Source: Candidatus Spongiisociaceae bacterium (GTDB lineage Bacteria > Actinomycetota > Acidimicrobiia > Spongiisociales > Spongiisociaceae). Taken from it: a stretch of 64,000 nt of DNA. Below are positions 12,602-49,781 of the stretch, piece by piece. The position numbers were made by a program, and so were the translations under genes. The stretch is taken from assembly GCA_965219685.1 (NCBI GenBank), contig CBDCOH010000002.1, positions 2,400,001 to 2,464,000 of the forward strand. The letters are read 5' to 3'. Positions within the stretch are counted from its first letter, which is position 1, and each line of letters opens with the position of its first letter. Below the pieces are notes generated by a model. The model was not told the DNA's origin, did not search any database, and saw only the letters and a list, made by a program, of their open reading frames with translations.

Positions 12602-12635
12602 CGGTATCGGGCTACGATATCGCCAATCAAGGTCG
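12602..12635. promoter_or_regulatory. CGATATCG-N5 operator array, site 3
   Basis: CGGTATCG ggcta CGATATCG ccaat CAAGGTCG upstream of the ABC operon. Confidence 0.78.
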
Positions 12636-12664
12636 CCGCCGGAGAGAACCAGAGGAGGCGGGCT

Positions 12665-17000: not shown

Positions 17001-17034
17001 GGATATCGTGAGTCGTTATCGGGATGTGATACCA
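17001..17034. promoter_or_regulatory. CGATATCG-N5 operator array, site 4
   Basis: GGATATCG tgagt CGTTATCG ggatg TGATACCA upstream of the substrate-binding protein gene. Confidence 0.78.
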
Positions 17035-24161: not shown

Positions 24162-24189
24162 CGGACTACGATATCGGTTGCCGAGATCA
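24156..24189. promoter_or_regulatory. CGATATCG-N5 operator array, site 5
   Basis: CGACATCG gacta CGATATCG gttgc CGAGATCA between divergent MmgE genes. Confidence 0.8.
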
Positions 24190-24237
24190 CGGTCAATCGA
24201 CCCGAGTCGTCGCCATCGGCAAGGAGGCCGGCCAAGC

Positions 24238-25584
24238 ATGCCCTCAAGCGGTCCATCGGTAAGCGAGAGACTGGCCCGCCATGTCGTCTCGCTGCGTTTC
24301 GATGATCTGCCCACCGAGATCGTGGAACGCGCCAAGGACCACCTGGTGCACCATGTGGGTCTCGGAATACAGGGCCGGAACAGTGAGTACGGGAAGAAGG
24401 CGCGCCGAAACGCGGCCCGGCTCAGCGCGACCGGCGGGCGGTTCTCGGCCATCGGCGAGAAGCCGGCCCTAGGACTGCTCGACGCGGTGTTCGTGAACTG
24501 CCTCTACATGCACCACAGCGGCCAGGACGATTCGGAGTCTGCCGGCACCCATCCCGGGGTCCTCGTGTACCCGGCGGCTCTGAACCTCTCGCAGGACCGC
24601 ACCGTCAGCGGGAAGGAGTTCCTGGTGGCTTGCGTGATCGGCTACGACGTGTCGATGGTCCTGAGCGCCGGAACTTGGGCATGGACCGCCCCCGCGCCCA
24701 GGAGAAGCAATGCGATCTTCGGGCCGGTCGCGGTCGCCGCCACCGCCGCCCGCCTGCTCGGCCTTTCCGAGTCACAGACCGTGGATGCGCTGGGCCAGGC
24801 CTGCCATGGAGCGCTGGGTCTGATCGAAGGAACCCGGTTCATATGGGTGGTGTATCCGTGGGAGTGCCGGGCGGGAGTGTTCGCCGCCACCCTCGCCGAG
24901 TCGGGCCTCCGGGCCGCGCCGAGCATGATCGAAGGCGACTTCGGCCTTTACCGGACGCTGCTCCAGGAGGTCCCGTCCGGCATCGACGAGAACCTCGCCA
25001 CTCTGGGCTCCTACTTCCGCATCGTGGAAGCGCGAGTCAAGAAGTACAGCGCCAGCAACCTGAACGCTGGCATCCTCGACGCGACGAAGAGGGTGTGCGA
25101 GGCGAAGTCGATCCGGCCGGAGCATGTGGAGTCGATCCTGATCGAACTGCCCGACAGCCGCAGGATACGGGAGAAGCGCATGGAGGAGAACTTCTCCAGG
25201 TACGTGGATCTCGCCTCGCGGTGCGGCTCGCTGCGCTTCCTGACGGCGTTGATCCTCCGCGACGGCGACCTCGACAGCCGGATCTACACCGACCCCATCC
25301 CCGAGGACCTCCGGGCGCTGATCGACTCGATCTCCCTGCGCTTCCTGGACGAGGCACCGTCCAATTACTACGGGAGGGTCACCATACGGACCACCGACGG
25401 CGGGGCGGAAAGGGTCGAGTACGGGCGCGACGGCGTCGACTATCCGGAAGTGGACCGGGAGGGATGGATGTCCAGGTGCGTGGGCGACGATCCCTCGGTC
25501 GACGTTGATCGTCTCCTGCAGATCGTCAGCGAACTGGAGCAGCTACCCGACGCATCGGTCCTCCTCGAAGCCCTCTCGGGCTGA
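24238..25584 (+). CDS. MmgE/PrpD family protein (3)
   Basis: AKDHLVHHVGL, DAVFVN, GTHPG, IEGDFGLY; AGGAGG RBS. Confidence 0.88.
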   Translation: MPSSGPSVSERLARHVVSLRFDDLPTEIVERAKDHLVHHVGLGIQGRNSEYGKKARRNAARLSATGGRFSAIGEKPALGLLDAVFVNCLYMHHSGQDDSESAGTHPGVLVYPAALNLSQDRTVSGKEFLVACVIGYDVSMVLSAGTWAWTAPAPRRSNAIFGPVAVAATAARLLGLSESQTVDALGQACHGALGLIEGTRFIWVVYPWECRAGVFAATLAESGLRAAPSMIEGDFGLYRTLLQEVPSGIDENLATLGSYFRIVEARVKKYSASNLNAGILDATKRVCEAKSIRPEHVESILIELPDSRRIREKRMEENFSRYVDLASRCGSLRFLTALILRDGDLDSRIYTDPIPEDLRALIDSISLRFLDEAPSNYYGRVTIRTTDGGAERVEYGRDGVDYPEVDREGWMSRCVGDDPSVDVDRLLQIVSELEQLPDASVLLEALSG

Positions 25585-25708
25585 TGGTGCGTACGAGGAT
25601 GGTCCTGCATGCCTGGGAGAGCGTTCCGAAAGGAACCGGGATGGATCGAACGGGACTCTTGATCCGGGTTACGACCGGCGCCACGGCCCCGGTGACAGGA
25701 CGGACATC

Positions 25709-26440
25709 ATGACCGGCGCCCGAGGTGGAAGGACCGTCTACGGGCTGGCGCTCGGCGTCATCATGCTCGACACCAAGTTCCCGCGCCTCCGGGGCGATGT
25801 CGGCAATGCCCGCACCTGGCCCTTCCCCGTTCGTTACCGGATCGTGGAGGGGGCCATCCCCGAGCGTATGGCCCAGGCCGATCCCGATCCCGAGTTACTG
25901 GCTCCCTTCTTGGATGCCGCCCGTGCGCTGGAGTCGGAAGGCGTGCGAGCCATCTGCACCAGCTGCGGGTTCCTGGCGGTCAACCAGCCGGAGTTGGCGT
26001 CGGCCGTGGAGGTACCGGTCTTCTCGTCGCCGCTCCTCCAGGTTCCGATGGCGGCCGCCGCGGCGGGGGGCAGGAAGGTGGTGATCCTGACCGCCCGGAC
26101 CGTGCTCACCGAACAGCACTACCGGGGAGCGGGCTGGTCCTCGCAGGATTTGTCCGTGGTCCAGATGGCGCCCCCCGAGGACAGCCACTTCTACACCACC
26201 TTCGTGGGTAACTCGCCCGAGGCGGACAGCCGGATACTCGAGCGGGAACTTGCCGACCTGGCCAGGAGGGTCGTCTCCGAACACCCCGACGCCGGGGCGA
26301 TCGTGATGGAGTGCGCCAACTTCCCGCCGTTCGGCCAGATCGTCCGGTCGATCACCGGCCTGCCGGTCTTCGACCTGTACACGATGGGGATGTACGCCTA
26401 CCTGGCGAGTTCCGGGACCGAGTTCCCGCGAACCCTGTAA
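25709..26440 (+). CDS. Asp/Glu racemase-family protein (1)
   Basis: GVIMLDTKFPR..GDVGNA.TWPFPV; two catalytic-type Cys in TSCGF and ECANF. Confidence 0.85.
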   Translation: MTGARGGRTVYGLALGVIMLDTKFPRLRGDVGNARTWPFPVRYRIVEGAIPERMAQADPDPELLAPFLDAARALESEGVRAICTSCGFLAVNQPELASAVEVPVFSSPLLQVPMAAAAAGGRKVVILTARTVLTEQHYRGAGWSSQDLSVVQMAPPEDSHFYTTFVGNSPEADSRILERELADLARRVVSEHPDAGAIVMECANFPPFGQIVRSITGLPVFDLYTMGMYAYLASSGTEFPRTL

Positions 26441-26444
26441 CCCG

Positions 26445-27044
26445 GTGAACGCACCTAAGGAGGGATCGACCGAACCGCGGCGGGACCGGCTGGGGATCGG
26501 CGCCATCGCCACGGTCTTCTTCAGGATGGGGATCGTGGCGTTCGGAGGGCTTCTCCTGCTGCTCGTATTGATCGAGCGGGAGTTGGTGGACAAGCGCCCG
26601 GCGCTGACCAAGCGGCAGATCACCGAAGCCGTCACCTACACGCGCCTCCTTCCCGGTTCGGGTGGCCCTCTCGTGGTCTCCTACCTCGGCTACGTGCTGA
26701 GGGGGGTCGGCGGGTCGGGGGTCGCCACCCTGATGTATCTCCTTCCCGGGATACTCGTCATGACCGGGTTGGCGGTGGGTTTCGTCGCCATCTCCACCCT
26801 GCCCTTGCTCAGCCCCGCCATCGAAGGCCTCCTGGCTGCCGTCGTCGGCATCCAGTCGGTATACCTCTACCGGTTCGCCCGGAAGGCGATCATCGACGCG
26901 GTCACGGCCACCATCCTCGTAGCCGGGCTGTGCGCGACGCTCCTCCTGGATGTCAGCGCGCCGCTCGTCGTCCTGCTGGCCGGAATGGTGGGGATCGTCC
27001 TGTTCACCAAGAGCCTCGGTGCGGAAGTTGCGGATGATGGCTGA
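26445..27044 (+). CDS. Short-chain chromate transporter, N-half
   Basis: FFRMGIVAFGG, LLPGSGG, YLLPG. Confidence 0.8.
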   Translation: MNAPKEGSTEPRRDRLGIGAIATVFFRMGIVAFGGLLLLLVLIERELVDKRPALTKRQITEAVTYTRLLPGSGGPLVVSYLGYVLRGVGGSGVATLMYLLPGILVMTGLAVGFVAISTLPLLSPAIEGLLAAVVGIQSVYLYRFARKAIIDAVTATILVAGLCATLLLDVSAPLVVLLAGMVGIVLFTKSLGAEVADDG

Positions 27045-27597
27045 ACTGCTCGACCTGTTCTGGCAGTTCATGCTGTTCAGCCTTCTCGCCTTCGGTGGAG
27101 GGGGAACCGTATTGGGCCTGGTGGACCGGGTGGCCGTGGCGGACAAGGGATGGATCACGCCGGCGGAGTTCTCGGCGGCGGTCGGCTTCACTTTCATCAC
27201 TCCGGGACCGATCCTCGTTCTGGCGCCCTTCGTCGGCTATCTCGTGGCGGGAGCGCCGGGCGCGGTGGTCGCCACCTTCGGCGTATTCCTGGCCCCTTGG
27301 ACACTGGCCATGGGATCGGCCCACCGGCTCCGGCAGTACCTCCACCATCCCCGGCTCCGGGCCTTCGGCAAGGGCGCGGGACCGGCCATCGTCGGCCTGT
27401 TCAGCCTCGCCGTGCTCACCATCGCCAGATCCAGCATCTCCAACGTGGCCATGGTCGCCGTGGCGCTGGTAGCAGGGGTCCTGATGACGAGGACGAAGCT
27501 CCATCCGATCCTCATCCTGGTGGGCGGAGCGTTGGCGGGCCTGGTGCTTGGCCTCACCGGCCTCGGCGACGCGATACCGGAGGTCCGGATCCCCTAG
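27037..27597 (+). CDS. Short-chain chromate transporter, C-half
   Basis: LLAFGGG, KGWITPAEF, ITPGPI, FVGYLVAG..GA. Confidence 0.85.
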   Translation: MAELLDLFWQFMLFSLLAFGGGGTVLGLVDRVAVADKGWITPAEFSAAVGFTFITPGPILVLAPFVGYLVAGAPGAVVATFGVFLAPWTLAMGSAHRLRQYLHHPRLRAFGKGAGPAIVGLFSLAVLTIARSSISNVAMVAVALVAGVLMTRTKLHPILILVGGALAGLVLGLTGLGDAIPEVRIP

Positions 27598-28926: not shown

Positions 28927-28960
28927 CGATATTGGGATGCGATATCGAACTTCGAGCATT
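28927..28960. promoter_or_regulatory. CGATATCG-N5 operator array, site 6
   Basis: CGATATTG ggatg CGATATCG aactt CGAGCATT in a divergent gap. Confidence 0.78.
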
Positions 28961-29000
28961 ATGGTACGTCCCGACCGAGGCACGGTGGATCGGAGGATCT

Positions 29001-30134
29001 ATGGGTTCCGGGTTCTCCCCCAAAGAGTTCTATGGGGGCATGGCGAACAGCCTCGCCATGCAGGTGGCACGGGACGAGGTGGCATGGACGGATCGCCACC
29101 GGACGCCCGACGGCCCCGTGGACACGCTGCTCGCGTTCGGATGCGCCGTCCAGCACACACCGCACCTGATGCGCGCCGCAACGAGGGTCTTCGACGTGCT
29201 CGGGATCGAGCACCGGGCAGTCGCCGGGCGCCAGTACTGCTGCGGCCGGCCCTTCCGGCGGACCGGGAAGGTCAAGGCCGCCGACAACATAGTGGCCAGT
29301 TCCTACGCACGCTTCGCGTCCTACCGTCCGCAAACGATGGTGCAGTGGTGCGGGGCGTGCATGATCACCTATATCGACGTCGCCAGCCGCCGCATGACCA
29401 CCCCGTTCGAGGTGATCCACGTCTCCACTTACATGGCCCGTGTGCTGCGCGAGCGGGCGGGCAGCCTCCCGTGGCGGGAGACCGACCGGCTAACCGTCCT
29501 CGTCCACCGCCATGTCCAGCCCAAGGTCCCCAACGATCGCTCATCCGAACACCGCGGAAAGCCGGGCCGTGACCAGGTCACCGACGCCACGATCGAGGCG
29601 GTCGACGAGATCCTCTCGCGCATCCCGGGAGTCGAGAACCTGGGGGTCGTCGAACCGCCATCGAGCGGCGCTCCCTGTGATCTCAAGAAGGTCAACGACC
29701 GGTTCGTGGGCTTGGGTGATATCAGTTCCGACGCCCATCGGGCGATCCTTGGGCATCTGGCGGAGCAGGCCGATCGCACCGGGGCAGAGATCGTCGTGAC
29801 CCCTTACCACGCCTGCCAGAAGCAATGGTCCAAGCTGGCGAGCCACAAGCTGGGCGTGCGCCACTGGATGTCCGTACTCGCCGATGCCCTCGGGGTCGGC
29901 GTCGAGGACCGCTACCAGGCCTACTGGCGCCTGGCCGATCCGGAGGCCATCGTGAAGTCATCCAGCCCCGCTTGGAGTTCGTGGGGGATCAGTTCCGAAG
30001 ATGCCTACGAGCACGCTCGGACCCACTTCACCGCAGCCTTCTCGGACAGCATCCACGACTGCGAGTGCGGCGGCTCAGGCTGCGGAGCGCCCACTCCGGA
30101 GTTGGTCTGGCCACTGGTAAGCGGAGCCCGTTAG
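29001..30134 (+). CDS. Stand-alone CCG-domain (HdrB/GlpC-related) Fe-S protein (1)
   Basis: FGCAVQHTPHL, YCCGRPF, WCGAC, PYHAC, C-terminal CECGGSGC. Confidence 0.7.
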   Translation: MGSGFSPKEFYGGMANSLAMQVARDEVAWTDRHRTPDGPVDTLLAFGCAVQHTPHLMRAATRVFDVLGIEHRAVAGRQYCCGRPFRRTGKVKAADNIVASSYARFASYRPQTMVQWCGACMITYIDVASRRMTTPFEVIHVSTYMARVLRERAGSLPWRETDRLTVLVHRHVQPKVPNDRSSEHRGKPGRDQVTDATIEAVDEILSRIPGVENLGVVEPPSSGAPCDLKKVNDRFVGLGDISSDAHRAILGHLAEQADRTGAEIVVTPYHACQKQWSKLASHKLGVRHWMSVLADALGVGVEDRYQAYWRLADPEAIVKSSSPAWSSWGISSEDAYEHARTHFTAAFSDSIHDCECGGSGCGAPTPELVWPLVSGAR

Positions 30135-30151: not shown

Positions 30152-31366
30152 TCAGACCAGGTCGAGGACGGGGAGTTCCATACCGGCCTCCAAGGTGGCC
30201 TTCCAGGAGGTGTCGCAAGCCGCCCCTGCTCCGGCGGAGCGCGCACCGGCGACCGCCTCGACGCAGTTGCCCTCGCAGGGACAGCGCTGGACCCGGGACG
30301 CGTACTCGGGCATGAAGTGATGCTTCACGATGTGTCGAGCCTCCTTCTCATCCATCCCCCACGACTCCCAGTGGCGCCTCGTCTGCTCGAAGATCATGTC
30401 CGGATCCCCCAGCTTCCAGAGGGTCTGGAACCGGTCGGGAATCCTGATCCCCAGCGCTTCTGCGAGCAGCGACTGGTAGTGGAGAACGGGAAGACGGTCG
30501 CTCCCGAACTTGCACCACTCCCGGTGACACATGTGGTGGTGGGTCAGGATGGCATCGGCCCCGACCGCATCGGCCTGGGCCTGAAGATCCTGCTGGACTT
30601 CCAGGTATTGCTCCGGGGTGATGTCGTTGAGAACGCTTGGTTCTCCCGGACCCTTGGTCGCGCACGGCTGGCCGAGTGCGGGACTCTCCACGATACCCAC
30701 GTACTCGATCCCCGGGATCAACTCGAGCGTCCTGATCACCGCCGACTTGGCTGCTTCCTTGGTGGGATGGACCTCGGCGCCCTCGGCATGGAGCATCACC
30801 CGGCGGGGTATGGACTTGCGCCACGGTATGCCGTCGCCCATCTCGACCAGGAGGTCGGCCAGGTAGTCCGTTATATGGATCACCTCGAAAGGGGCCTGGC
30901 CGCGCTGGTCCGAGATGACCTTCACGTGGTAGTCGAACTCGATGAGGCACGAACCGCAGCACTGCACGTTGACCTCCGGCTGCCACGAAGCGAACCTGTC
31001 GATGGCCCGCGCCGCCATCGCGTCGCCGACTTGGCCCTTGCCGAAGCGTTGGAAGGGCCTGCCGCAGCAGTACTTGTTACCGGCTACCGCGACGAAGTCG
31101 ACCCGGAGCGCCTCGAACAGGGCGACCTGGGTGAGCATCAGGTGCGGCGTGTTCTGGACGCCGCAACTCAGGTTCAGGACCACCTCCGCCCCTTCGGCCG
31201 GTTTCGAGTACCGCTCCAGCCAGGTGACCTCGTCTCGCGAGATCTGGAGGCGTTCCGAGTTGAGGTGATCACGATAGAAGCGGGTGAAGCTGAACTCCTT
31301 GGCCCGCGAGAGATCGAAGTCCTCCCCTGCCGCGTTCTTCGTGACCATCCGGTCGTCAACCACCAT
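30152..31366 (-). CDS. Stand-alone CCG-domain Fe-S protein (2)
   Basis: LSCGVQNTPHL, YCCGRPF, CCGSC, HHMC, CPCEGNC. Confidence 0.7.
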   Translation of the reverse strand: MVVDDRMVTKNAAGEDFDLSRAKEFSFTRFYRDHLNSERLQISRDEVTWLERYSKPAEGAEVVLNLSCGVQNTPHLMLTQVALFEALRVDFVAVAGNKYCCGRPFQRFGKGQVGDAMAARAIDRFASWQPEVNVQCCGSCLIEFDYHVKVISDQRGQAPFEVIHITDYLADLLVEMGDGIPWRKSIPRRVMLHAEGAEVHPTKEAAKSAVIRTLELIPGIEYVGIVESPALGQPCATKGPGEPSVLNDITPEQYLEVQQDLQAQADAVGADAILTHHHMCHREWCKFGSDRLPVLHYQSLLAEALGIRIPDRFQTLWKLGDPDMIFEQTRRHWESWGMDEKEARHIVKHHFMPEYASRVQRCPCEGNCVEAVAGARSAGAGAACDTSWKATLEAGMELPVLDLV

Positions 31367-31426
31367 CGATCCGTTCCTTTTCGTCTCGCTTCAATCTAGT
31401 AGGGAGCTCGCTCCGACGCCCGGCCA

Positions 31427-32407
31427 TCAGCGGGGCGCCGGGCCCTTCGAGAGCTGCTCCAAACCCCTGCGTATGGCCGCACGCTCCGCACTGGCGCCGA
31501 CCCTTCCCAGCGCCAGGCCGTGCCGTTCCCGCACCAACTCGATCCGCTCGTCCAATGGAAGCAACGGGCAGTTCTGACACAGCCGACCCCGGCGATCGTC
31601 CAACCGGTAGGTGAGACAGCACGCATGGCGGCGGTGGATGCCGTGGGGGAACATCGGGTCGTCGATCTCATCCCACACCACGAGGCCTCGCAGGGGGTTG
31701 GGTCCCGGTACCCCCGGTATGGCCGGAGCGCCCAGCAGGGCTCGGCGGTCCTCCACGTAGGGTCGGCCGGCCCCGCCTAGGTACTCGTCGGCCGAGTCCG
31801 AGACCATCCCCACCCATTCGGCCGCGTTGGTCCACAGCAGACGTTCCGAGACCCGCGTCAGGCTCCGGACAACCTCGAAGAAGGGCGCCAGGTGCCGGCC
31901 GTACAGGGTCTCCCAGGCATGCGCCCTGACCTCGGCCAGAGTTGCAGCGGCTTGGGCGTCCACCTTCCACGGCGTGAGCCGCTCGCCGGTCACCACTGCT
32001 CCCTCTCCGAGATCGTCCAGCACCAGTGCGAACGGGAGGGACACACGGGTGAGGATCCTGCAATGGCGCGGCGAAAGGTCCAGGGCCACTCCGTTGGCCA
32101 GGGCACATAATGCCGCAACGGTTAGGCAACCGGTGTAATGGCGGGTCAGCCGTGAGACGGCGATCCGCAGATCGATGTCCACCTCTGAGCGGTCATCCAG
32201 ATGATCCGCCGGATCCGCGAACAGCAACTCGCGGTCCACCGTATGGGACGCGGCGATCGCCCGTCGCAGGAAGTCCGGTTCGAAGTAGCGAGTGGCCGGA
32301 ACGGCCTCTGGAGACGCCGGGTCGTCGAGTAGGTAACGCCCCTCGAACCAACGCCCGAGCCGTCCGATGCCGTCCGCCAGGGACCGCTTCCAATCCTCGG
32401 TCGGCAT
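31427..32407 (-). CDS. FhuF-like (2Fe-2S) ferric-chelate reductase domain protein
   Basis: ERLLWTNAA and C-terminal RRHACCLTYR...LCQNCP (CC-x-C-x2-C); ATGA overlap with the chrA stop. Confidence 0.75.
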   Translation of the reverse strand: MPTEDWKRSLADGIGRLGRWFEGRYLLDDPASPEAVPATRYFEPDFLRRAIAASHTVDRELLFADPADHLDDRSEVDIDLRIAVSRLTRHYTGCLTVAALCALANGVALDLSPRHCRILTRVSLPFALVLDDLGEGAVVTGERLTPWKVDAQAAATLAEVRAHAWETLYGRHLAPFFEVVRSLTRVSERLLWTNAAEWVGMVSDSADEYLGGAGRPYVEDRRALLGAPAIPGVPGPNPLRGLVVWDEIDDPMFPHGIHRRHACCLTYRLDDRRGRLCQNCPLLPLDERIELVRERHGLALGRVGASAERAAIRRGLEQLSKGPAPR

Positions 32408-33654
32408 CAGAGCGTAGCGAGCAGGCCACCGCCGGCCGCGGTCAGGATGACGACCAGCCAAGGGGGAAGTTTCCAGAAAGCCAGGAGCCCCAGCGCGACG
32501 AGCGCGAGCCCGAAGTCCTCGGGACCGAGGATGGCGCTCGACCAGAGAGGATCGTACAGGGCGGCCAGCAGGACCCCCACCACTGCTGCGTTGACCCCGC
32601 GCAGGACTGCCTGCACCTCGGGGCGTGCGCGGAGGGCCCCGAAGGTGGGGAGGGTGGCGACCACTATGAGGAAGGAGGGCAGGAAGATGGCCAGGAGGGC
32701 CAGGAGAGCACCACCGACCCCGTTCGGCTCGGTACCAAGGGAGGCGCCGAGATAGGCCGAGAACGTGAATATGGGCCCCGGCACAGCTTGGGCCGCACCG
32801 AATCCGGCGATGAAGGTCTCATCGTCGACCCAACCCGGTCCGACCACCTCGCTCTCGAGCAAGGGCAGGACGACAGGGCCTCCGCCGAACACCAGTGCCC
32901 CGGAACCGTAGAAGGCGTCAGCCGTCCCGATGGCCGGAGCGTCGAACGCCGCCCTGGCCACCGGCAGCAGGGCCAACAGCGCGAAGAACAGGACCGCGCT
33001 GACAATCGCAGCCCGGCGTCCTGATCCGAGTTGGTACGAGCGGGCAGCAGCGGCTTCCCGGCGCAGGAAGAACCAGCCCACGATCCCGCCCAGGATGATG
33101 ACGACCACGATCGTGGTCCGCGCCGACGAGGGAAAGGCGATCACCGCCAGCGTTGCCAGGACCGCCATCGAACTGCGGAACCGGTCCGGCGCCAGCTGGC
33201 GCCACAGCTTCCACACCGCCAGGCCGACCACGGGAACGGCCACCACCACCAGCCCGTGGATCCACCCGGCCGCCTCCTCGGTGAGACGCGAAGCCGTCAG
33301 GCCCAGCACCGTCATGATCACGGCCGAGGGCAAGGTGAACCCGAGCCAGGCGATGACCCCGCCCCACAGACCACCCCGAGCCATCCCGATGGCCATGCCC
33401 AGCTTGCTGCTACCGGCGCCCGGGAACGCCTGCGAGAGGGCAACGAGGTCGGCGAAGGTCTCCTCATCGACCCAGCGGCGCCGCTGGACGTACTCGTCCT
33501 GGAAGTAGCCGATGTGGGCGATTGGGCCACCGAAGGAGGTGAGCCCGAGGCGCAGAGCCACCCAGAAGATCTCGACCAGCGGCCCTCGTTCCGGGATGAA
33601 AGTAGCCGGGGCAGGGCCGGCGTGGTGGTCGTTCGGGTTGCTATCGTCCGTCAC
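32407..33654 (-). CDS. chrA: Long-chain chromate efflux transporter, copy 2
   Basis: LGLTSFGGPIAHIGYF, FGGGPVVLPLL, AQAVPGPIF; visibly close paralog of 3510..4754. Confidence 0.92.
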   Translation of the reverse strand: MTDDSNPNDHHAGPAPATFIPERGPLVEIFWVALRLGLTSFGGPIAHIGYFQDEYVQRRRWVDEETFADLVALSQAFPGAGSSKLGMAIGMARGGLWGGVIAWLGFTLPSAVIMTVLGLTASRLTEEAAGWIHGLVVVAVPVVGLAVWKLWRQLAPDRFRSSMAVLATLAVIAFPSSARTTIVVVIILGGIVGWFFLRREAAAARSYQLGSGRRAAIVSAVLFFALLALLPVARAAFDAPAIGTADAFYGSGALVFGGGPVVLPLLESEVVGPGWVDDETFIAGFGAAQAVPGPIFTFSAYLGASLGTEPNGVGGALLALLAIFLPSFLIVVATLPTFGALRARPEVQAVLRGVNAAVVGVLLAALYDPLWSSAILGPEDFGLALVALGLLAFWKLPPWLVVILTAAGGGLLATL

Positions 33655-33682
33655 CGGTATCCCCTAGTCATGCATCGCGGGC

Positions 33683-33703
33683 CAATATCGGGCTACGATA
33701 CCA
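33683..33703. promoter_or_regulatory. CGATATCG-N5 operator array, site 7
   Basis: CAATATCG ggcta CGATACCA between divergent chrA and padR. Confidence 0.72.
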
Positions 33704-33752
33704 GGCATCCGAATGGCGAACCGCGACGGACCAGCGACGAACAGGCGGCCAG

Positions 33753-34130
33753 ATGAGCAGGACCGACCGAATCGAGGGCCATCCCACCTTCGAGGCCCAT
33801 AGCAGGCTCTTCCGCGACATCCTGCTGGGTTTCGTTAGGGTGCATGTGCTCCACTGCGCCAGTAGAGGTCCCGTCTACGGGGTGGCGCTCAACGAGGAAC
33901 TCGCGGTCCACGGCTACAACCTGTCGCCGGGAACCCTCTATCCACTCCTCCACGGACTCGAGGACATCGGGTTTCTCGAGCGGACTCCGGAAGTCGTCGG
34001 CGGCAAGGTACGGAAGTACTACTCGCTGACCGACCGGGGACACCAGGCGCTTGAGGATCTCCGTTACAAGATTCGCGAGTTGGTCAGCGATGTGCTGGAT
34101 GGCGAGACCGTACCGGCGGGCTCCCGGTAG
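33753..34130 (+). CDS. PadR-family transcriptional regulator
   Basis: LGFVRVHVLH, VYG...EEL..HGYNLSPGTLYPLLH.LE, RKYYSLT..G. Confidence 0.92.
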   Translation: MSRTDRIEGHPTFEAHSRLFRDILLGFVRVHVLHCASRGPVYGVALNEELAVHGYNLSPGTLYPLLHGLEDIGFLERTPEVVGGKVRKYYSLTDRGHQALEDLRYKIRELVSDVLDGETVPAGSR

Positions 34131-34193
34131 CCCTACCGGACCGGGGCAGCGCCCGATGGGGAGCGGTCGGCTTCCCGAACGCCGGAGTCTCCT

Positions 34194-35132
34194 ATGAGGA
34201 TCGGGCTGATGGCATCGATCTCTGCTGCCGGCGAGCCGACCCTCGAGAACATCACGGCAACCATCGTCCGGGCTGAAGCAACCGGGTTCGACACCGTTTG
34301 GACTTCGGGACGGATGGACGCCCTGACGCAACTGGCTCTCGCCTCGGTACGCACTAACCGTGTCGAGCTTGGCACGGCCATCGTGCCCACCTATCCCCGC
34401 CATCCGCACGCCTTGGTCCAGCAGGCCCTGACAGTCCAGATCGCCTGCGGCGGCAGACTGGCGCTCGGCGTTGGGGTGAGCCATGACACTTCGATGTCAT
34501 CCCTTGGTTTCGACTGGTCTGCGCCGGTCCGCCACGCCCGCGAGTACCTGAGCGGTCTGAATGGGTTGCTGGCAGGAGCGGAGGTTACGTTCGAAGGGAC
34601 CGACTTCTCCCTCTCGAATGCAACCGCGCCGCTCGCCCACCTGACGGCCGTCCCCCCGGTTCTCCTGGCTGCGCTGGGTCCGCAGATGCTGCGGGTGGCC
34701 GGAACGCTTTCCGACGGGACCGTCCTCTGGCTCAGCGGCGCGCGCTATGTGAGAACGGTGGCGGTGCCGGAGATCGCGGCCGCGGCGAAACGAGCCGGCA
34801 AACCCCCGCCGCGGGTGGTGGCAGGAGGTCCGGTGTGCGTGACCGACGATGCGAAGGCATCCTACGAACGCGCCGAACGCGTCCTGCACGCCATCGGGAA
34901 CAGGCCGGTCTACCGGTCGGTACTGGACCTCGACGGTTCGGCCAGCCCGGCCCAGGTAGCCCTGATCGGCGACGAAGCCCTCGTCGGTGAACGTCTTGAC
35001 GAGTTGGCCGAGGCAGGCGCCACCGACTTCGCCGCCCAGATCCTCGCCGCCTCTCCCGAGGAGTACGAGCGGACCCATGCCTTCCTGGCGGGCCGCGCCG
35101 GGACTGGTCACCGTGCCGGCACGGGTCGGTGA
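34194..35132 (+). CDS. LLM-class (F420-dependent-like) oxidoreductase
   Basis: ELGTAIVPTYPRHP, RLALGVGVSH, LAALGPQMLRVAG. Confidence 0.88.
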   Translation: MRIGLMASISAAGEPTLENITATIVRAEATGFDTVWTSGRMDALTQLALASVRTNRVELGTAIVPTYPRHPHALVQQALTVQIACGGRLALGVGVSHDTSMSSLGFDWSAPVRHAREYLSGLNGLLAGAEVTFEGTDFSLSNATAPLAHLTAVPPVLLAALGPQMLRVAGTLSDGTVLWLSGARYVRTVAVPEIAAAAKRAGKPPPRVVAGGPVCVTDDAKASYERAERVLHAIGNRPVYRSVLDLDGSASPAQVALIGDEALVGERLDELAEAGATDFAAQILAASPEEYERTHAFLAGRAGTGHRAGTGR

Positions 35133-35139: not shown

Positions 35140-35160
35140 CGATATCGGGCTACGATAACG
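35140..35160. promoter_or_regulatory. CGATATCG-N5 operator array, site 8
   Basis: CGATATCG ggcta CGATAACG upstream of the membrane protein gene. Confidence 0.8.
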
Positions 35161-35202: not shown

Positions 35203-35616
35203 GTGGATTGGGATCTGTTCGTGGTGCATTGGCTTCACGTCGCCTTCGGGATCTTCTGGGCCGGGTCGATCGCGTTCACGAGGGTGACCCTGTTCCCGGC
35301 CCTGGCCACGCTTCCCAAGGAACAGGCAGTGGCGGCGAGGAACACCCTGTTGACGGGGAATGCGAAGCGGATCACGTTGATCACGGCCGCCGGGACGGTG
35401 ACAACCGGGATCCTGCGGGGCCTCATGACCGGTGTATTGGATCAGTTGGACACGTCCTACGGATGGATCTACATACTGTCGGGCGTCATCGCGATCCTGA
35501 TGTTCCTCTTCCTGCTCGACTGGTCACCCAAACCGGCCGTCCTACGGCACATCTACCTCGCAGCCTTTCCGGTGCTCTTCACGATGATGGTGCTGATGCG
35601 TTTCGGAGGGTTCTAG
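35203..35616 (+). CDS. Four-TM membrane protein (CopD/DUF2269-like N-terminus)
   Basis: HWLHVAFGIFWAG, TTGILRG; GAGGAGG RBS. Confidence 0.65.
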   Translation: MDWDLFVVHWLHVAFGIFWAGSIAFTRVTLFPALATLPKEQAVAARNTLLTGNAKRITLITAAGTVTTGILRGLMTGVLDQLDTSYGWIYILSGVIAILMFLFLLDWSPKPAVLRHIYLAAFPVLFTMMVLMRFGGF

Positions 35617-36854
35617 GAGGCTGGTGGCCGGTCGAGCGTTTCCTCCTCCACCCGGCCGGCCATCAGGCACAAGGGGAGGGCGACCGCCGACGCTACCAAG
35701 AAGCCGAGCGACAGGAATGTCACCGTACCGTCATAGGCGCGGTCGATCAGCGATCCCAGTAGCGCCCCTCCTCCGGTCGATGTTGCCCCGATGATCGACC
35801 CGGCGGTTCCTGCCTGCCCGGCCATCGGATCGAGGGCCAGGCTGTTCAGGTTGGCGACAACCAGGCCGTGCATGGCGGCGAGCACCGATAGACATACCAG
35901 GAAAAGTGCGAACGTCGGCCTTCCCTCCCCTACCCAGGTTGCGGTCGTCAATGTGAGCGCGGCCGCCAAGTAGATCACGAGGATCCCGACAACCACCCGC
36001 TCGGTCGTAAGCGTCTCGACCAACGCCGCGTTGGCGATCATGGCCGTGGCCATGATCGCGGTAATCCCCCCGTATATCCAGGGGAACTGCTGGGCGCGAC
36101 CGAAGATGTCGGAGAAGATCAGTTCGGAACTCGCCATGTACGAGAAGAAGGCGCCGAAGCTGAACGCCATAGCGACCGTGTAGAAGACCGTGTTGCGGTT
36201 GCGGAGAACCCGCAGGACGGAATTGCCTAGACGGGACACCGACCACCCGACGGCTGGCCGGACCGCCCGCGTCTCGCCGAGCCGGGTCGCCCAAACAGCC
36301 ACCACCGCCGCGAGCCCCACGGCCAACCAGAACACTCCGTGCCAGGAGGTGACATCCGCGATGGTGGCGCCCGCAACGGGAGCGAAGACAGGAACGATGG
36401 TGAAGACGGCGAACACCGACGACATGATCCTCGCCAGGCGATCCCCGTCGAACAGGTCCCTCACGATGGCCAGCGCCACGATCCGGGGCCCGGCCGCCCC
36501 CACACCCCAGAGAGCCTGAGTCGCCAGGAGCAGCGAGAGAGAACCTACGCTCCCCGCGAGTACCGACCCGGCAGCCCCGAGCGCATAGATCGAGAAGCCG
36601 ATCCTCAGCGCCGGCTTCCTCCCCAAAGCATCCGACAACGGCCCGTAGACCAGCCCGCCGACGGACAGACCGACGATGTAGGCCGTGATCGCCCCTGCGA
36701 GGCGGTTCGAGTCCTCGGCCAGCCCGAGAACCTGGCGCATCTCCCCGAACGCAGGCAGGATGAGCCCCACGAGCGCTGAAAGCGCCATCGCAGAGGACAG
36801 GAGCACGATCAGTTCCCCTTCGCGCATGCTCCTTGCGGGTGGGGTCAGGGTCAC
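35613..36854 (-). CDS. Bcr/CflA-family MFS efflux transporter
   Basis: YGPLSDALGRKP, AIVRDLFDG, APVAG, AGTAGS. Confidence 0.88.
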   Translation of the reverse strand: MTLTPPARSMREGELIVLLSSAMALSALVGLILPAFGEMRQVLGLAEDSNRLAGAITAYIVGLSVGGLVYGPLSDALGRKPALRIGFSIYALGAAGSVLAGSVGSLSLLLATQALWGVGAAGPRIVALAIVRDLFDGDRLARIMSSVFAVFTIVPVFAPVAGATIADVTSWHGVFWLAVGLAAVVAVWATRLGETRAVRPAVGWSVSRLGNSVLRVLRNRNTVFYTVAMAFSFGAFFSYMASSELIFSDIFGRAQQFPWIYGGITAIMATAMIANAALVETLTTERVVVGILVIYLAAALTLTTATWVGEGRPTFALFLVCLSVLAAMHGLVVANLNSLALDPMAGQAGTAGSIIGATSTGGGALLGSLIDRAYDGTVTFLSLGFLVASAVALPLCLMAGRVEEETLDRPPAS

Positions 36855-36921: not shown

Positions 36922-36942
36922 CGAAGTCGGCTACCGATATCG
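36922..36942. promoter_or_regulatory. CGATATCG-N5 operator array, site 9
   Basis: CGAAGTCG gctac CGATATCG followed by TAATAT, in a divergent gap. Confidence 0.7.
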
Positions 36943-36979: not shown

Positions 36980-38077
36980 GTGATCGACAAGACGAAGTTC
37001 GATGTAAAGGGCTACTACACGGCCATGGCCGAGAGCAAGTCGCTTCTGATCGCCCGCGACGACCTCAAGTGGACCGAGCGGTGGGTGGAGCCCGACCGTC
37101 CCTACGACGCACTGCTCGCCTACGGTTGCGCGGTCCAGCATACGCCACACCTGATGCAGGAGGCCGCCAACGTCCTCGACGTGCTGGGCGTCGACTACTT
37201 CGCGGTCACCGGCCGACAGTTCTGCTGCGGCCGGCCGTTCGAGAAGATGGGCAAGGACGGCGCGGTCGCCGACCGCATCTCCGACAAGTCCTACCGGCGG
37301 TTCATGTCCTACCGCCCCAAAGTCGCGGTGCAGTGGTGCGGCGCCTGCATGCGCCAATACCTCGACACGATCAGCGCCCAGCAGGATCCCCCGTTCGCGG
37401 TGGTCCACGTCACCAAGTTCCTTGCCGACCTGCTCGAGGCGAGAGCCGCCGAGGTCCCCTGGGTTAGAGAGGTGAAGACGCGGGTCCTGCTGGAGGCCCA
37501 CCACGACCATGCCCAAGCCGACATAGACACCGCCTCGATTCTCCGCATCTTCGAGATGGTTCCCGGTGTCGACTTCGCCGGGTTCGTCGAGCCGCCGTCC
37601 GCCGGCACCCCGTGCGACCTCGAGGGTCCCAAGGCTGTGGGGGTACTCAACAAGGTCGACACCGAGACCTTCCAGCGCGCCATCACGGAACTGGAGGACC
37701 AGTTGGAGAAGGCAGGGGCAGACACCTTGGTGACCCCCTACCACAAGTGCCAGATGGAGTGGTCGAAGCTCTCCACGAAGAAGCTGGCTATCCGCGAGTG
37801 GATCTCACTGGTTGCGGAAGCGATGGGGGTGGGCGTCCAGGACCGCTACACCATGTACTGGCATCTGGGCGATCCCGAGAGAATCGCCGAGGAGGCTCGG
37901 CCGCAGTGGGAGACCTGGGGCTGGTCCGAGGAGCAGGCGATCGAGGCCGCCCGGCGGCACTTTGTTCCAGAATACGCTATCGACGTGCACCACTGCGACT
38001 GCGGCGGCAGCGGCTGCGGGAGCGAGGGAGCCGACCTGCTCTGGCCGGGACTCGTCGACGTGGCCTCCCTAGTCTGA
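36980..38077 (+). CDS. Stand-alone CCG-domain Fe-S protein (3)
   Basis: YGCAVQHTPHL, FCCGRPF, WCGAC, PYHKC, CDCGGSGC. Confidence 0.7.
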   Translation: MIDKTKFDVKGYYTAMAESKSLLIARDDLKWTERWVEPDRPYDALLAYGCAVQHTPHLMQEAANVLDVLGVDYFAVTGRQFCCGRPFEKMGKDGAVADRISDKSYRRFMSYRPKVAVQWCGACMRQYLDTISAQQDPPFAVVHVTKFLADLLEARAAEVPWVREVKTRVLLEAHHDHAQADIDTASILRIFEMVPGVDFAGFVEPPSAGTPCDLEGPKAVGVLNKVDTETFQRAITELEDQLEKAGADTLVTPYHKCQMEWSKLSTKKLAIREWISLVAEAMGVGVQDRYTMYWHLGDPERIAEEARPQWETWGWSEEQAIEAARRHFVPEYAIDVHHCDCGGSGCGSEGADLLWPGLVDVASLV

Positions 38078-38105: not shown

Positions 38106-38464
38106 TCACAGCCGCACCGAGGGCAGCCGCCTCAACTCGCGGTTGACGGGATCGACATGGATTCCAGCAGACTCCAGCGCAGTGGCGCCCAACAGCGGCT
38201 CGGAGTGGGGTTTGCCGAAGATCACGGTCGCGCCGACCGTCTCTCCCATGATCTCGAACTCGGCAACCGTGACATCGAACCGGACTCTGTACCGTCGGCA
38301 AGCTCGTACCCGCGAGTGCTCCGTGGCGTCAGGCCTATGGATTCGAGCCACGGTCCGGGAACCGACGAGTCGATGGCTCCCGTGTCGACCAGAAACCGAC
38401 CTCGCCACTCCTGCTCCGGCGCGCCAGGATTCCGTACGATGATGTTTGCGTAGGTCATGCCCAT
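38106..38464 (-). pseudogene. Clan AA aspartic protease (AF_0612-like), frameshifted
   Basis: MGMTYA...LVDTGA...YELADGT in one frame continues RVRFDV...EPLLGATALES in another; one base missing near 38289. Confidence 0.8.
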
Positions 38465-38703: not shown

Positions 38704-39528
38704 CTACAGAGCGAAGCCGAAGTCGCGGGCGGCCTCCATCAACTCCAGCTTGTCGTCGTGCGCGCCGGAGCGCCTACCGATGATGAGAGCGCAGTTCACC
38801 TCGAATGTTCCACCGGGGAACTCCCGCGTCCGGCTGCCCGGTATCACGATCGATCGCGGCGGGACCTCCCCTTTGTGGGTGACAACGGGGTTCTGAGTCA
38901 CATCGATCACATGGGTGGATCCCGTGATCGAGTTCTGGGCGGCGATGACCGCTCCTTCGCCGACGATGACTCCCTCCACGATGATCGAGCGGGATCCGAT
39001 GAAGGCGTCATCCTCAACGATCACCGGCCTCGCCCCGGCGGGCTCCAGCACGCCCCCGATACCGACCCCGCCCGAGAGGTGCACCCTGCGGCCGATCTGC
39101 GCGCCGCTGCCGACCGTTGCCCAGGTGTCCACCAGCGTGCCCGTGCCCACGTAGGCGCCGATGTTGACGAAGCTGGGCATCATCACCACGCCGGGCTCCA
39201 GGTGGCTCCCGTAGCGGGCGATACCGCCGGCCACCACCCGGTTGCCCCGGGCCTCGTAGTCGTGCTTGAGGGGAAGTCGGTCGTAGAACTCGAGCGGCCC
39301 GGCGTGCAGGGTCTCCATCTCGGTGACTCGGAAGTAGAGGTTGATGGCCTGCTGGATCCAGGCGTGAACGATCCAATCGCCGTCGACCTTCTCCGCCAGC
39401 CTGAGCGCACCCTGGTCGAGGAGAGCCACGGTCTGCTCGACGGCATCGACTTCGTGGTCCTCCATGGCAGACGGGTGCCGCGCGGCCGCGCCGATGGTCC
39501 GCTCGAGGTGGGTGACGGTCGTGCTCAT
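38704..39528 (-). CDS. dapD: Tetrahydrodipicolinate N-succinyltransferase
   Basis: MPSFVNIGAYVG.GTLVDTWATVGSGAQIG..VHLSGGVGIGGVLEP. Confidence 0.95.
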   Translation of the reverse strand: MSTTVTHLERTIGAAARHPSAMEDHEVDAVEQTVALLDQGALRLAEKVDGDWIVHAWIQQAINLYFRVTEMETLHAGPLEFYDRLPLKHDYEARGNRVVAGGIARYGSHLEPGVVMMPSFVNIGAYVGTGTLVDTWATVGSGAQIGRRVHLSGGVGIGGVLEPAGARPVIVEDDAFIGSRSIIVEGVIVGEGAVIAAQNSITGSTHVIDVTQNPVVTHKGEVPPRSIVIPGSRTREFPGGTFEVNCALIIGRRSGAHDDKLELMEAARDFGFAL

Positions 39529-39546
39529 CGGTCCTCCTTCCGTGCT

Positions 39547-41256
39547 TTACTCGGCGTTCACCGGCGGAGCCCCACGAGTGGGTTGGTCGAGAACGACATC
39601 GACGACGTAGGGCGTCGCGGCGTCCATCCCCCGCCGGATGGCCGACCCTAGGTCTCTCGCCGTATCCACCCTCTCGCCCGGCACTCCCAAGGAACCGGCA
39701 AGGGCGACGAAGTCCACCCCCGGCCCTTCGATGTCGATACCCGGTAGGTCCGACCCGCCTTCGCTCCAAGGTCCACCCATGCGGTTGACGATCAGTTCGA
39801 GAACCCGGTAGCCGCCGTTGTTGAGGATGACCGCGAGTACCGGTAGCCCGCGGTTCGCTAGGTTCCAGAGAGCGTGGGGATAGTAGAGAAAGGACCCGTC
39901 TCCCACTGCGACCACGATCTTGCGATCGGGCAGCCCGAGTTGAAGCCCGGCCGCGACGCCCACGGAGAATCCGAGCGATATCCCGTTCGCTCCCATGTAG
40001 GAGAGAGGATCGGCGAACTCGAGCACGTTCACGAACCAGGGCCGGTTCGAAATCGTCTCATCGACGAAGACCCCTCCGGCCGGGAGCGTATCCCGGATCG
40101 CCTTCGCCACCGCGCCCGTGGTCGGCCTCCGCTCGCGGGCCACTTGATCGACTCTCCGATCCCACGCCGCGCGGCGGGTATCAGCATCCGCGCGCACCAT
40201 CCTGGTTCTGGCAGCAACGGATCCGGGAACTCCCGGCCTCCTCTGGAGTGCGGTACAGAGGCGGCGCAGGTTCGATCCGACATCACCGAGCAGGGCTACC
40301 GACGCAGGGTGGTTCTTACCGAGTTCGCCGGGATGGTCGTCGACAGCCACCGTTCGCACATCGAATGGGATCAAGGGTCCGCCGCCGTCGTAGCGTGAGA
40401 CCGGCGCCGCCGCGGTGACACCGCACAGGAGCACGACGTCGGATCGGGCAAATCTGTCCCGCATCTCGGCCGCCAGGTTGGGCATCGGTCCCAGGTACAA
40501 GGGGTGGCGGGAGGGATAGTTCCAGAGCGTCGCATAGCCTTCGGTGTAGACGCGGGCCCCCAGGGCCTCGGCTATGGTCACGACCTTGTCCCATGCGCGG
40601 GCGTGGCCCACCCCGTCGCCGGCCACGATCATCGGCCTCTCGGCCGAGGCGAGCAAGTCGGCAGCTTCCCGGATCCCCGCTTCGTCCGCCATCGAAGCGG
40701 TCGGCGTGGTGACCCTCGCCTGGCCGAGACCGTCGTGCTTCTCCAGAAGGACGTTGGGCGGGACCGACACGAAGACCGGTGCGAACGGTGGGGTGACCAA
40801 CTCCTTGAAGGCCCGCTGCATGACCATCGGCAACTCCTCGAGGAAACGAACCTCGTAGGACCATTTGGTGAACTGCCCGACGATGGCGCGAAGGTCCGAG
40901 GTCAGGATGGGATCCTGGACCAGTAGACCGGTGTGATGCTGGCCGGCGGCTACCAGGAGAGGGACGCGGGCTCGATGGGCGTTGTAGAGGTTGCCGAGAC
41001 CATGAGCGACACCTGGGGTGACGTGGAGGTTCACCACGCCGACCTTGCCCGACGCTCGCGCATACCCGATGGCTTGGGCGACTGCGACGTCCTCGTGAAG
41101 GGAGAGGACGTACTCAATCGACGGGTAGTCGTTGCATCCGTCCACGAGGGGCAATTCCGTGGTGCCCGGGTTGCCGAAGATGTAGCGGACATCCTGGCAG
41201 ACCAGGTATTCGAAGAAGATATCCCGTCCGAGGGCTGTAGGCCGGCTACCCGTCAC
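39547..41256 (-). CDS. TPP-dependent enzyme (benzoylformate decarboxylase-like)
   Basis: FGNPGTTELP, LHEDVAV, GDGSFLY...NN. Confidence 0.9.
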   Translation of the reverse strand: MTGSRPTALGRDIFFEYLVCQDVRYIFGNPGTTELPLVDGCNDYPSIEYVLSLHEDVAVAQAIGYARASGKVGVVNLHVTPGVAHGLGNLYNAHRARVPLLVAAGQHHTGLLVQDPILTSDLRAIVGQFTKWSYEVRFLEELPMVMQRAFKELVTPPFAPVFVSVPPNVLLEKHDGLGQARVTTPTASMADEAGIREAADLLASAERPMIVAGDGVGHARAWDKVVTIAEALGARVYTEGYATLWNYPSRHPLYLGPMPNLAAEMRDRFARSDVVLLCGVTAAAPVSRYDGGGPLIPFDVRTVAVDDHPGELGKNHPASVALLGDVGSNLRRLCTALQRRPGVPGSVAARTRMVRADADTRRAAWDRRVDQVARERRPTTGAVAKAIRDTLPAGGVFVDETISNRPWFVNVLEFADPLSYMGANGISLGFSVGVAAGLQLGLPDRKIVVAVGDGSFLYYPHALWNLANRGLPVLAVILNNGGYRVLELIVNRMGGPWSEGGSDLPGIDIEGPGVDFVALAGSLGVPGERVDTARDLGSAIRRGMDAATPYVVDVVLDQPTRGAPPVNAE

Positions 41257-41271: not shown

Positions 41272-41305
41272 TGAACTCGCGAACCGATATCGGAGGACGT
41301 TACCG
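41272..41305. promoter_or_regulatory. CGATATCG-N5 operator array, site 10
   Basis: TGAACTCG cgaac CGATATCG gagga CGTTACCG in a divergent gap. Confidence 0.75.
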
Positions 41306-43782: not shown

Positions 43783-43816
43783 TAGCATCGAGACCCGATA
43801 TCGGTACACGAAACCG
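43783..43816. promoter_or_regulatory. CGATATCG-N5 operator array, site 11
   Basis: TAGCATCG agacc CGATATCG gtaca CGAAACCG in a divergent gap. Confidence 0.75.
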
Positions 43817-45225: not shown

Positions 45226-45361
45226 TAGATGATAGTTGATAATTGATAGTTTCCGTTAGATCGGATCATTCACCATCCTCAATAGCAAGGCACTATCCAT
45301 CGATGAGCCACCAGCCATTAGCAAAACTCACAACTACTAACTAATAACTACCAACTATTAA
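45217..45361. repeat. Two facing heptamer arrays between convergent genes
   Basis: + strand GATAGTT GATAGAT GATAGTT GATAATT GATAGTT (45217-45251); CTCACAA CTACTAA CTAATAA CTACCAA CTATTAA (45327-45361). Confidence 0.8.
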
Positions 45362-46139: not shown

Positions 46140-46173
46140 TGATTACGAACCCCGATATCATGATCCGAGTTCG
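46140..46173. promoter_or_regulatory. CGATATCG-N5 operator array, site 12
   Basis: TGATTACG aaccc CGATATCA tgatc CGAGTTCG in a divergent gap. Confidence 0.72.
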
Positions 46174-46198
46174 AGTTTCGTCACCGGAACGGAGCGCG

Positions 46199-49705: not shown

Positions 49706-49781
49706 GACCGGCGCTGGTGGGCCCTTGGCACGGCACCCTTTGTCCACCATCCTTGCACGCCGGTGCCGGCCGGAGGCCGGT

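Follow-up and report, generated by a model that had tools for sequence, protein, structure and literature searches.

The 64,000-nucleotide (nt) stretch analyzed here (hereafter the window; positions 2,400,001 to 2,464,000 of contig CBDCOH010000002.1, assembly GCA_965219685.1, Candidatus Spongiisociaceae bacterium) codes for a small PadR-type regulator, padR (33753..34130, plus strand), next to a gene of the CHR/ChrA transporter family, chrA3 (32407..33654, minus strand; PF02417, 245 bits; TIGR00937, 307.8 bits against a cut-off of 171.7). Genome comparison makes it likely that this PadR is the cognate, and probably repressing, regulator of 12 operator regions that carry the inverted repeat TATCG-N5-CGATA and apparently lie ahead of essentially all transcription units from about 3.5 to 52 kb of the window. 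As the motif precedes padR itself and about a dozen neighboring operons, the protein is likely to act as their on/off switch. What appears to be new is the operator for this PadR subfamily, together with an unusually large, cluster-wide regulon, as the adjacency of padR and chrA had already been published (PMC2936356).

padR and chrA3 are divergent across a 98-bp spacer, in which CAATATCGggctaCGATACCA is located at 33683..33703. Its 15-bp core, TATCGGGCTACGATA (33686..33700), is an exact TATCG-N5-CGATA and reaches 22.6 bits with a matrix built from distant loci (see below). A weaker unit, CATCGCGGGCCAATA (CATCG-N5-CAATA; 33673..33687), overlaps this core 13 bp upstream, and both units make up the predicted padR/chrA3 operator (33673..33700), whose distance is 52 nt to the padR ATG on one side and 18 nt to the chrA3 start on the other. 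The original prediction had placed a site in this divergent promoter and seen in it a sign of autoregulation, and the exact repeat in the spacer agrees with that. The range it gave to the regulator, 33654..34130, does contain padR and its promoter, although 33654 is the first base of the chrA3 open reading frame (ORF) and padR starts only at 33753. The block CATCG..CAATATCGG.(C/T)TACGATA.CAG is invariant in five of five orthologous loci (75 to 99% protein identity), and the rest of the spacer varies among them in both sequence and length.

In the window, whose G+C content is 66%, TATCG-N5-CGATA, with up to one mismatch allowed, has 14 occurrences where 0.90 would be expected, a count reached by none of 100 shuffles, and the 21-mer form with at most three mismatches occurs seven times against 0.05 expected. 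Many sites are doubled as TATCG-N5-CGATATCG-N5-CGATA, that is, two inverted repeats with a common central palindrome in a 13-bp register. The exact CGATATCG is found 12 times in the window, and the copies at 7609 (inside an M20 gene) and 48601 are unsupported by the independent matrix. An Rfam scan of the whole window gave a single tRNA (1529..1601), so the motif lies outside any known RNA element.

To follow the motif in other genomes, we scanned for padR loci with a PadR alignment; this confirmed 581 loci, of which the best 80 were analyzed together with flanking sequence of up to 10 kb. The scan picked its candidates by two peptide patterns, one being the recognition helix PGTLYPLLH; as both lie within the coding region, the upstream DNA played no role in locus selection. 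The loci belong to Actinomycetota, Chloroflexota, Betaproteobacteria, Bacillota, Acidobacteriota, and other groups, with G+C contents of 29 to 76%. TATCG-N5-CGATA (at most one mismatch) lies between -250 and +30 of padR in 64 of the 80, with 43 exact copies, and among the 75 loci below 70% identity, 59 have a proximal site and 37 the 13-bp tandem pair. Outside the padR neighborhood, the same loci have 95 matches in 1,298,710 bp (0.02 per 280 bp), and in a composition-matched control, 59 other half-site permutations of the same architecture averaged 0.44 loci and reached five at most, compared with 64 for the real one. On this comparison, the motif is shown to be co-inherited with padR across phyla. 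The expectation that padR-chrA pairs of other genomes would carry it is borne out in Burkholderiales, Chloroflexota, Clostridia, and a plasmid module, and we saw no sign among these padR-selected loci that it travels with a different transcription factor, padR being the only gene common to all of them.

The plasmid module consists of chrA and padR beside sul1 and IS6100 in an Enterobacterales (Escherichia coli) resistance plasmid (NZ_CP023854.1), where a tandem unit of the operator (1230..1257 of that locus) is found about 40 nt before chrA and the PadR protein is 42% identical to that of the window over 97 residues. Unlike in the window, chrA and padR follow each other in one operon, which has just one operator region and lacks metabolic genes. 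A relative of the window protein is present in 1906 of 72,556 plasmid records, mostly from Klebsiella and Escherichia, and a padR-chrA pair on a Hydrogenophaga plasmid has the motif at the start of padR.

A position matrix was built exclusively from 101 sites of the 59 distant loci (below 70% identity; consensus cgaTATCGaatttCGATAtcg). It finds 16 matches of at least 14 bits in the window, while in 30 first-order Markov simulations the average was 0.1 and the highest count one. The matrix matches group as 12 operator regions, three of which (12605, 33686, and 35143) share an identical 15-mer. Some sites fall within the longest possible ORFs, and homology to relatives starts downstream of each such site, so that with starts inferred in this way all 12 regions are in promoter or divergent-promoter positions. 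No matrix site lies beyond 5.3-46.2 kb in the 64-kb window. The "master regulator" of the original prediction stands as far as likely control of the cluster goes, but the protein is better described as the dedicated regulator of one 45-kb cluster.

The first region (5343..5357; 29.2 bits) separates a short-chain dehydrogenase (SDR) fragment and chrA1 (3510..5326, minus strand) from a PrpD1-cupin-M20 unit (about 5360..8554, plus strand), and chrA1 is reached from it via the SDR fragment, whose start is 17 nt from the site. This fragment (4856..5326, minus strand), between chrA1 and the operator, matches only the N-terminal part of the profile (positions 3-70 of 195) and is probably what remains of a gene, now serving as leader of the chrA1 transcript. 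The tandem operator at 11710..11737 (units at 11710/11723; 26.0/17.4 bits) lies between E1alpha-E1beta-E2 (8559..~11700, minus strand) and ferredoxin-IscA (11797..12435, plus strand); E1alpha homology starts at residue 25 of its longest ORF, which places the site upstream of that gene. A single operator at 12605..12619 (23.3 bits) precedes the Opp-type ABC permease and ATPase genes (~12640..16907, plus strand), and a tandem one at 17004..17031 (17004/17017; 20.1/18.7 bits) precedes the family-5 solute-binding protein (17103..19352, plus strand). The region at 24159..24186 (24159/24172; 22.8/18.4 bits) is placed between a double-PrpD-opine dehydrogenase-hyp211 unit (19727..~24150, minus strand) and PrpD3-racemase-chrA2a/b (~24190..27597, plus strand), and that at 28930..28957 (28930/28943; 23.6/11.9 bits) between an FAD oxidoreductase (27650..~28920, minus strand) and CCG1 (~28960..30134, plus strand).

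Beyond padR, a single operator at 35143..35157 (24.5 bits) stands 45 nt ahead of hyp137 (35203..35616, plus strand), and another at 36925..36939 (15.3 bits) between an MFS transporter (35613..36854, minus strand) and CCG3 (36980..38077, plus strand). Three tandem operators follow. The first, at 41275..41302 (41275/41288; 10.1/19.1 bits), lies between a thiamine pyrophosphate (TPP) enzyme-DapD-like unit (38704..41256, minus strand) and an acyl-CoA dehydrogenase (41372..42556, plus strand). The second, at 43786..43813 (43786/43799; 15.3/15.2 bits), separates an aminotransferase (42563..~43785, minus strand) from PrpD4 (43831..45225, plus strand), and the weakest, at 46143..46170 (46143/46156; 15.0/12.1 bits), separates racemase 2 (45348..46082, minus strand) from AcnX-swivel-racemase 3 and three Ldh_2 genes (46160..51925, plus strand). 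According to these coordinates, the distance from operator to start ranges from 17 to about 70 nt, with chrA3 and the TPP gene at 18 nt each and PrpD4 at 17 nt.

padR was claimed to be the only transcription factor of the motif-bearing region, and this holds: among 74 ORF translations of the window scanned against Pfam, including 13 from gaps between called genes, it carries the sole DNA-binding regulator domain between 3.5 and 52 kb. A gene for an extracytoplasmic function (ECF) sigma factor (842..1564, minus strand) is found about 3.8 kb outside the first site. The tRNA gene (1529..1601, minus strand; Rfam, 71.2 bits) overlaps the longest-ORF start of this sigma gene, which indicates that its true start is further downstream.

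Orthologous operators are kept in relatives, here referred to by locus number, at the FAD oxidoreductase/CCG1 pair (L001-L003) and at hyp137, MFS/CCG3, and TPP enzyme/acyl-CoA dehydrogenase (L001-L004 for all three). The divergent aminotransferase/PrpD4 pair has an operator in L002, L003, and L008, the racemase/AcnX pair in L008, and a tandem site orthologous to the 24159 region is located at 580/593 of L004. Operators also precede homologs of OppB (L006, L007, L008, and L013), of the solute-binding protein (L006, L007, and L013), of E1alpha and ferredoxin (both in L006, ferredoxin in L007), and of the TPP enzyme (L006 and L015). Homologous cluster genes are thus preceded by operators in L002-L004, L006-L008, L013, and L015, and padR is found inside rearranged versions of the cluster in L006-L008, L012-L015, L018, and L019. 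In distant Actinomycetota and Limnocylindria loci, chrA homologs are also preceded by operators. Among the relatives, L004 (OZ241390.1, a complete-chromosome metagenome-assembled genome [MAG]; 20-kb locus), has its FAD oxidoreductase, LLM-class oxidoreductase, MFS, acyl-CoA dehydrogenase, aminotransferase, and PrpD4 genes aligning as two or three adjacent pieces, which suggests frameshifts, from either assembly errors or gene decay.

Most padR loci are simpler. With one mismatch allowed, a single operator region was found in 48 of the 80 loci, two in 17, none in two, and at least three in 13, against 0.26 expected per locus; L001-L004, L006-L008, and L015 have 5 to 10 each. In a maximum-likelihood tree (81 rows and 103 columns, with many forks unresolved), the window protein falls in a 10-row set with support of 99/96, of which eight rows are multi-operator loci and the other two short contigs. 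The multi-operator expansion is, judged by these comparisons, real, limited to a subset of loci (mainly Actinomycetota and Chloroflexota), and common to several lineages. The proposal that a regulator acting locally on a transporter had acquired an expanded regulon fits these data, but the expansion is not special to this genome, as L001-L004, L006-L008, and L015 show. In 35 of the 80 loci, a chrA-like gene is found no more than 2 kb from padR (17 divergent, 13 with padR followed by chrA, three with chrA followed by padR, and two others), and the divergent arrangement of padR and chrA3 is common to the window and L001-L005. Among 91 ORFs scanned in L006-L045, the other padR neighbors included ABC ATPases, MFS transporters, EB_dh-domain proteins, a TauE/SafE exporter, and a CDF transporter. 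The TauE/SafE gene (sulfite-exporter family; 1260..2045 of L010, a Chloroflexota contig) adjoins padR, has its own tandem operator (1213..1240), and is followed by short ChrA-like genes, which hints that this padR subfamily controls anion exporters more generally.

The protein encoded by padR (P0001) is a 125-amino-acid winged-helix regulator of PadR subfamily 2, with an ATG start and a match to PF03551 over residues 32-101 (67.1 bits; cut-off, 27). Its AlphaFold2 model, made with a 20-sequence alignment (pLDDT, 84.3), has helices at 13-37, 43-51, and 59-71, strands at 75-82 and 85-92, and a last helix at 94-115; this order of three helices, a two-strand wing, and a single C-terminal helix matches subfamily 2, and its length fits the range of about 100 to 125 residues of that subfamily. 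Orthologs with 75 to 99% identity occur in Acidimicrobiia MAGs, and the next relatives are at most 66% identical. Residues 1-19 (33753..33809) form an N-terminal extension without counterpart in Rv3488, the nearest structure (see below). H10, E14, and H16 of this extension are invariant across the 20-sequence alignment, as are two further histidines, H53 and H67, and a metal or ligand site is conceivable.

Among solved structures, Rv3488 of Mycobacterium tuberculosis comes closest (PDB 5zhc, 5zhv, 5zi8, and 7wh4; phmmer E value of 2.4e-21 over residues 20-124). Foldseek ranks it first (5zi8_B, 43% identity), with a target-normalized TM score of 0.88 and 42 to 43% identity, and the recognition helices are nearly alike (SPGTLYPTLH and SPGTLYPLLH). 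P0001 differs by its approximately 19 extra N-terminal residues, and, at 95.1 bits against the 140-bit cut-off of the equivalog family NF053635, it is a relative and not a member of the Rv3488 family. The PDB matches that follow are other small PadR proteins, all of subfamily-2 size. LmrR of Lactococcus and PadR of Bacillus subtilis (PDB 5x11) are in the Foldseek list and have the same fold. Both are autoregulated, ligand-released local repressors of an export or detoxification gene, with regulons of one or two operons, and their operators are of the ATGT-N8-ACAT type, in contrast to the TATCG-N5-CGATA described here. PadR-fold regulators with large regulons do exist, AphA being an example.

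By gene context, the pair resembles chrI of Bacillus cereus SJ1, a PadR-family gene upstream of chrA1, together with which it forms a chromate-inducible two-gene operon (He et al. 2010, PMC2936356); the same paper already noted padR-chrA pairs in many genera. As there, the small padR of the window adjoins a CHR-family transporter gene, which makes it ChrI-type, and regulator and transporter are expressed together in B. cereus. The two differ in that chrI is part of a co-directional operon for which that paper (PMC2936356) defines no operator, whereas padR is here divergent to chrA and the operator recurs at 11 more promoter regions of a metabolic cluster. The likeness drawn here is one of gene context and family. 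Our literature search, subscription journals lying outside it, found no paper defining an operator for a ChrA-linked PadR or for Rv3488; PMC6624303 concerns other PadR proteins.

PadR proteins dimerize and bind DNA as dimers, typically with the homodimer on an inverted-repeat operator that is usually in its own promoter and from which a ligand releases it. By the same logic, a PadR dimer would sit on each TATCG-N5-CGATA repeat, whose 10-bp spacing between half-site centers suits a winged-helix dimer. It would bind the divergent promoter that it shares with chrA3, regulating itself, as well as the 11 further operator regions. Repression would come from occupancy of the promoter or transcription-start region, as operators 17-18 nt from the chrA3, TPP, and PrpD4 starts suggest, and would be lifted by a small ligand. 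All of this is inferred from sequence: the binding and its dimer stoichiometry, a repressing and not an activating role, and an inducer. Control by a ligand would follow by analogy with the chromate-induced chrI-chrA1 operon of B. cereus SJ1 (PMC2936356).

We consider it unlikely that PadR binds the motif but activates the operons of the cluster, or both activates and represses them. No promoter could be placed in the window, the variable distances from operator to start (17 to about 70 nt) leave room for such a role, and some PadR-fold proteins, like AphA of Vibrio, are activators. Several operators are, however, 17-18 nt from start codons, an improbable position for an activator, and the characterized subfamily-2 proteins are repressors. 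Moreover, chrI and chrA1 of B. cereus SJ1 rise together upon induction, as under an autoregulated repressor (PMC2936356).

Less likely still is that PadR controls only its own promoter and chrA3, with the other 11 regions under a paralog or another factor encoded outside the window. The analysis covers 64 kb of the genome, and a single operator region is indeed the rule in 48 of 80 relatives. Nevertheless, a single matrix, derived from the autoregulatory sites of distant padR genes, describes all 12 regions, and three of them, one being the padR/chrA3 site itself, are the identical 15-mer at 12605, 33686, and 35143. In relatives, padR lies within versions of the cluster, with operators ahead of the homologous genes in those mapped, and the Pfam scan of the 74 ORFs gave no second regulator domain in the cluster. 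Finally, it is very unlikely that the motif is a promoter element (for instance, for the nearby ECF sigma factor at 842..1564) or a short dispersed repeat instead of an operator: several Acidimicrobiia sites do have TACGAT in the spacer, which fits the loose actinobacterial -10 element TANNNT, but the perfect inverted repeat with 10-bp half-site spacing is kept ahead of padR in phyla of 30 to 75% G+C with very different promoters, its spacer varies and is unconserved across phyla, and no Rfam family or repeat element covers it.

Several points weigh against PadR as the repressor of all 12 regions. The 80-locus sample is made up only of PadR proteins that have the PGTLYPLLH helix in common. Sixteen of the 80 loci are without a proximal site, although six of these do have one 0.8-1.3 kb upstream (in L008, L031, L059, and L074, a co-directional gene was identified between this distal site and padR), and three of the 80 are without any matrix match. 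A scan of 33560..34260 for sigma-70-type promoters and terminators gave nothing, which leaves the overlap of operator and promoter unproven in this genome. Promoter hexamers predicted in two Clostridia loci adjoin the operator or overlap with it, at counts that are not above shuffles (4 versus 1.2 ± 1.1 and 2 versus 1.3 ± 1.1). At tandem operators, a steric clash would be expected between two dimers in the 13-bp register, unless the registers exclude each other or a higher-order complex forms. A paralog with the same recognition helix may exist elsewhere in the genome, only the 64-kb window being covered, and P0001 scores below the NCBIfam cut-off of the Rv3488 family (95.1 versus 140 bits). 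The case for P0001 as the regulator is, in short, one supported by comparative genomics.

As for the genes under this putative control, the Pfam and NCBIfam scans identify in the 3.5-52 kb region three full-length CHR permease genes plus one split pair. Further transporters are an Opp-type ABC importer, with a solute-binding protein that bears a weak resemblance to NikA and CntA, and one of the MFS type; the enzyme genes number about 35. Paralogs are frequent, with five MmgE/PrpD proteins (one a double-domain fusion of 1010 amino acids), four of the Asp/Glu-racemase family, and three tandem Ldh_2; the enzyme paralogs lie at 21420..24452 (minus strand), from 5242, from 24049, and from 43831, and the Ldh_2 genes at 48632..51925, all under the common operator. 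The cluster further codes for AcnX with its swivel subunit, an opine-dehydrogenase-family protein, an FAD oxidoreductase, three CCG-domain proteins, and an FhuF-like protein. The remaining genes are a 2-oxoacid dehydrogenase E1/E2 set, a TPP enzyme, a DapD-like acyltransferase, a DapL-like aminotransferase, an M20 amidohydrolase, an acyl-CoA dehydrogenase, ferredoxin, IscA, and an F420-dependent LLM oxidoreductase. NCBIfam cut-offs are passed by the DapD-like protein, the PDH E1alpha, the LLM oxidoreductase (TIGR03564), an amidohydrolase subfamily, and the PRK07475 racemase-like family, and barely passed by the aminotransferase (PRK09276, by one bit) and the IscA-type Fe-S accessory protein (TIGR00049, by about one bit). 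As most of the enzyme matches are below the curated cut-offs, no known pathway can be assigned to the cluster.

chrA3 probably forms an operon (30152..33654, minus strand; Pfam and NCBIfam) with the FhuF-like gene (31427..32461) and a CCG-domain gene (30152..31366), in an order kept in L001-L005. On the other side, the LLM-class oxidoreductase (34194..35132, plus strand; TIGR03564, 270 bits against a cut-off of 234) starts 63 bp after padR with no operator between them and is probably cotranscribed with it; their linkage is also kept in L001-L005. In L008 (Limnocylindrales MAG, 8709..9890), the order is reversed, with the operator followed by the LLM gene and then padR.

Two ORFs could be given little or no family: 35203..35616 (hyp137) has none, and 19727..20362 has only a weak match (MOSC; E value, 0.0033). 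The sequence of hyp137 (plus strand, 137 amino acids) resembles a small multipass membrane protein. It matches no Pfam or NCBIfam family, and a homolog search of a protein collection gave nine close relatives without names. It is kept in L001-L004, with a second copy (47% identical) in L002 and L003 and distant copies (38 to 42%) in L008, L012, L013, and L018. The 627-bp gap from CCG3 to the DapD-like gene contains two overlapping ORFs in different frames (38106..38464, minus strand), which look like one frameshifted small gene; one of them matches the retropepsin-like aspartyl protease family PF13650 (25.1 bits). As the DapD-like gene is missing from L002-L004, this gap may belong to an insertion.

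What the cluster does is a matter for speculation, and this applies to both metallophore and organosulfur ideas for its pathway. One reading, which we put forward tentatively and regard as rather unlikely, is that the CHR permeases and the ChrI-type PadR serve here for transport and sensing within a catabolic regulon, whose substrate would be an amino-polycarboxylate, an opine-like compound, or an organosulfur compound, and are not a chromate resistance system; PadR would then answer to an intermediate of the pathway or to an oxyanion that is released, for example sulfite. Hints in this direction are the four CHR permeases (one of them split) under an operator common to about 35 enzyme genes, the TauE/SafE gene of L010 that adjoins padR with its own tandem operator, and the best NCBIfam names among the enzymes (sulfolactate dehydrogenase, 3-sulfinopropanoyl-CoA desulfinase, and cysteate racemase), all far below their cut-offs. 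A literature search on CHR and sulfur gave cement papers only. If this reading were true, the chromate response seen elsewhere and the chrA-padR module of clinical plasmids would reflect mimicry of a physiological anion.

The motif TATCG-N5-CGATA, often as a 13-bp tandem, provides a concrete candidate operator for a widespread PadR subfamily that includes the Enterobacterales plasmid module. Through it, about 45 genes in uncultured Acidimicrobiia, and in the Actinomycetota and Chloroflexota related to them, would become members of one regulon, which gives their annotation a strong functional link. It also sets the CHR permeases in a metabolic context, in which their physiological substrate may be approached through what releases PadR from its DNA.

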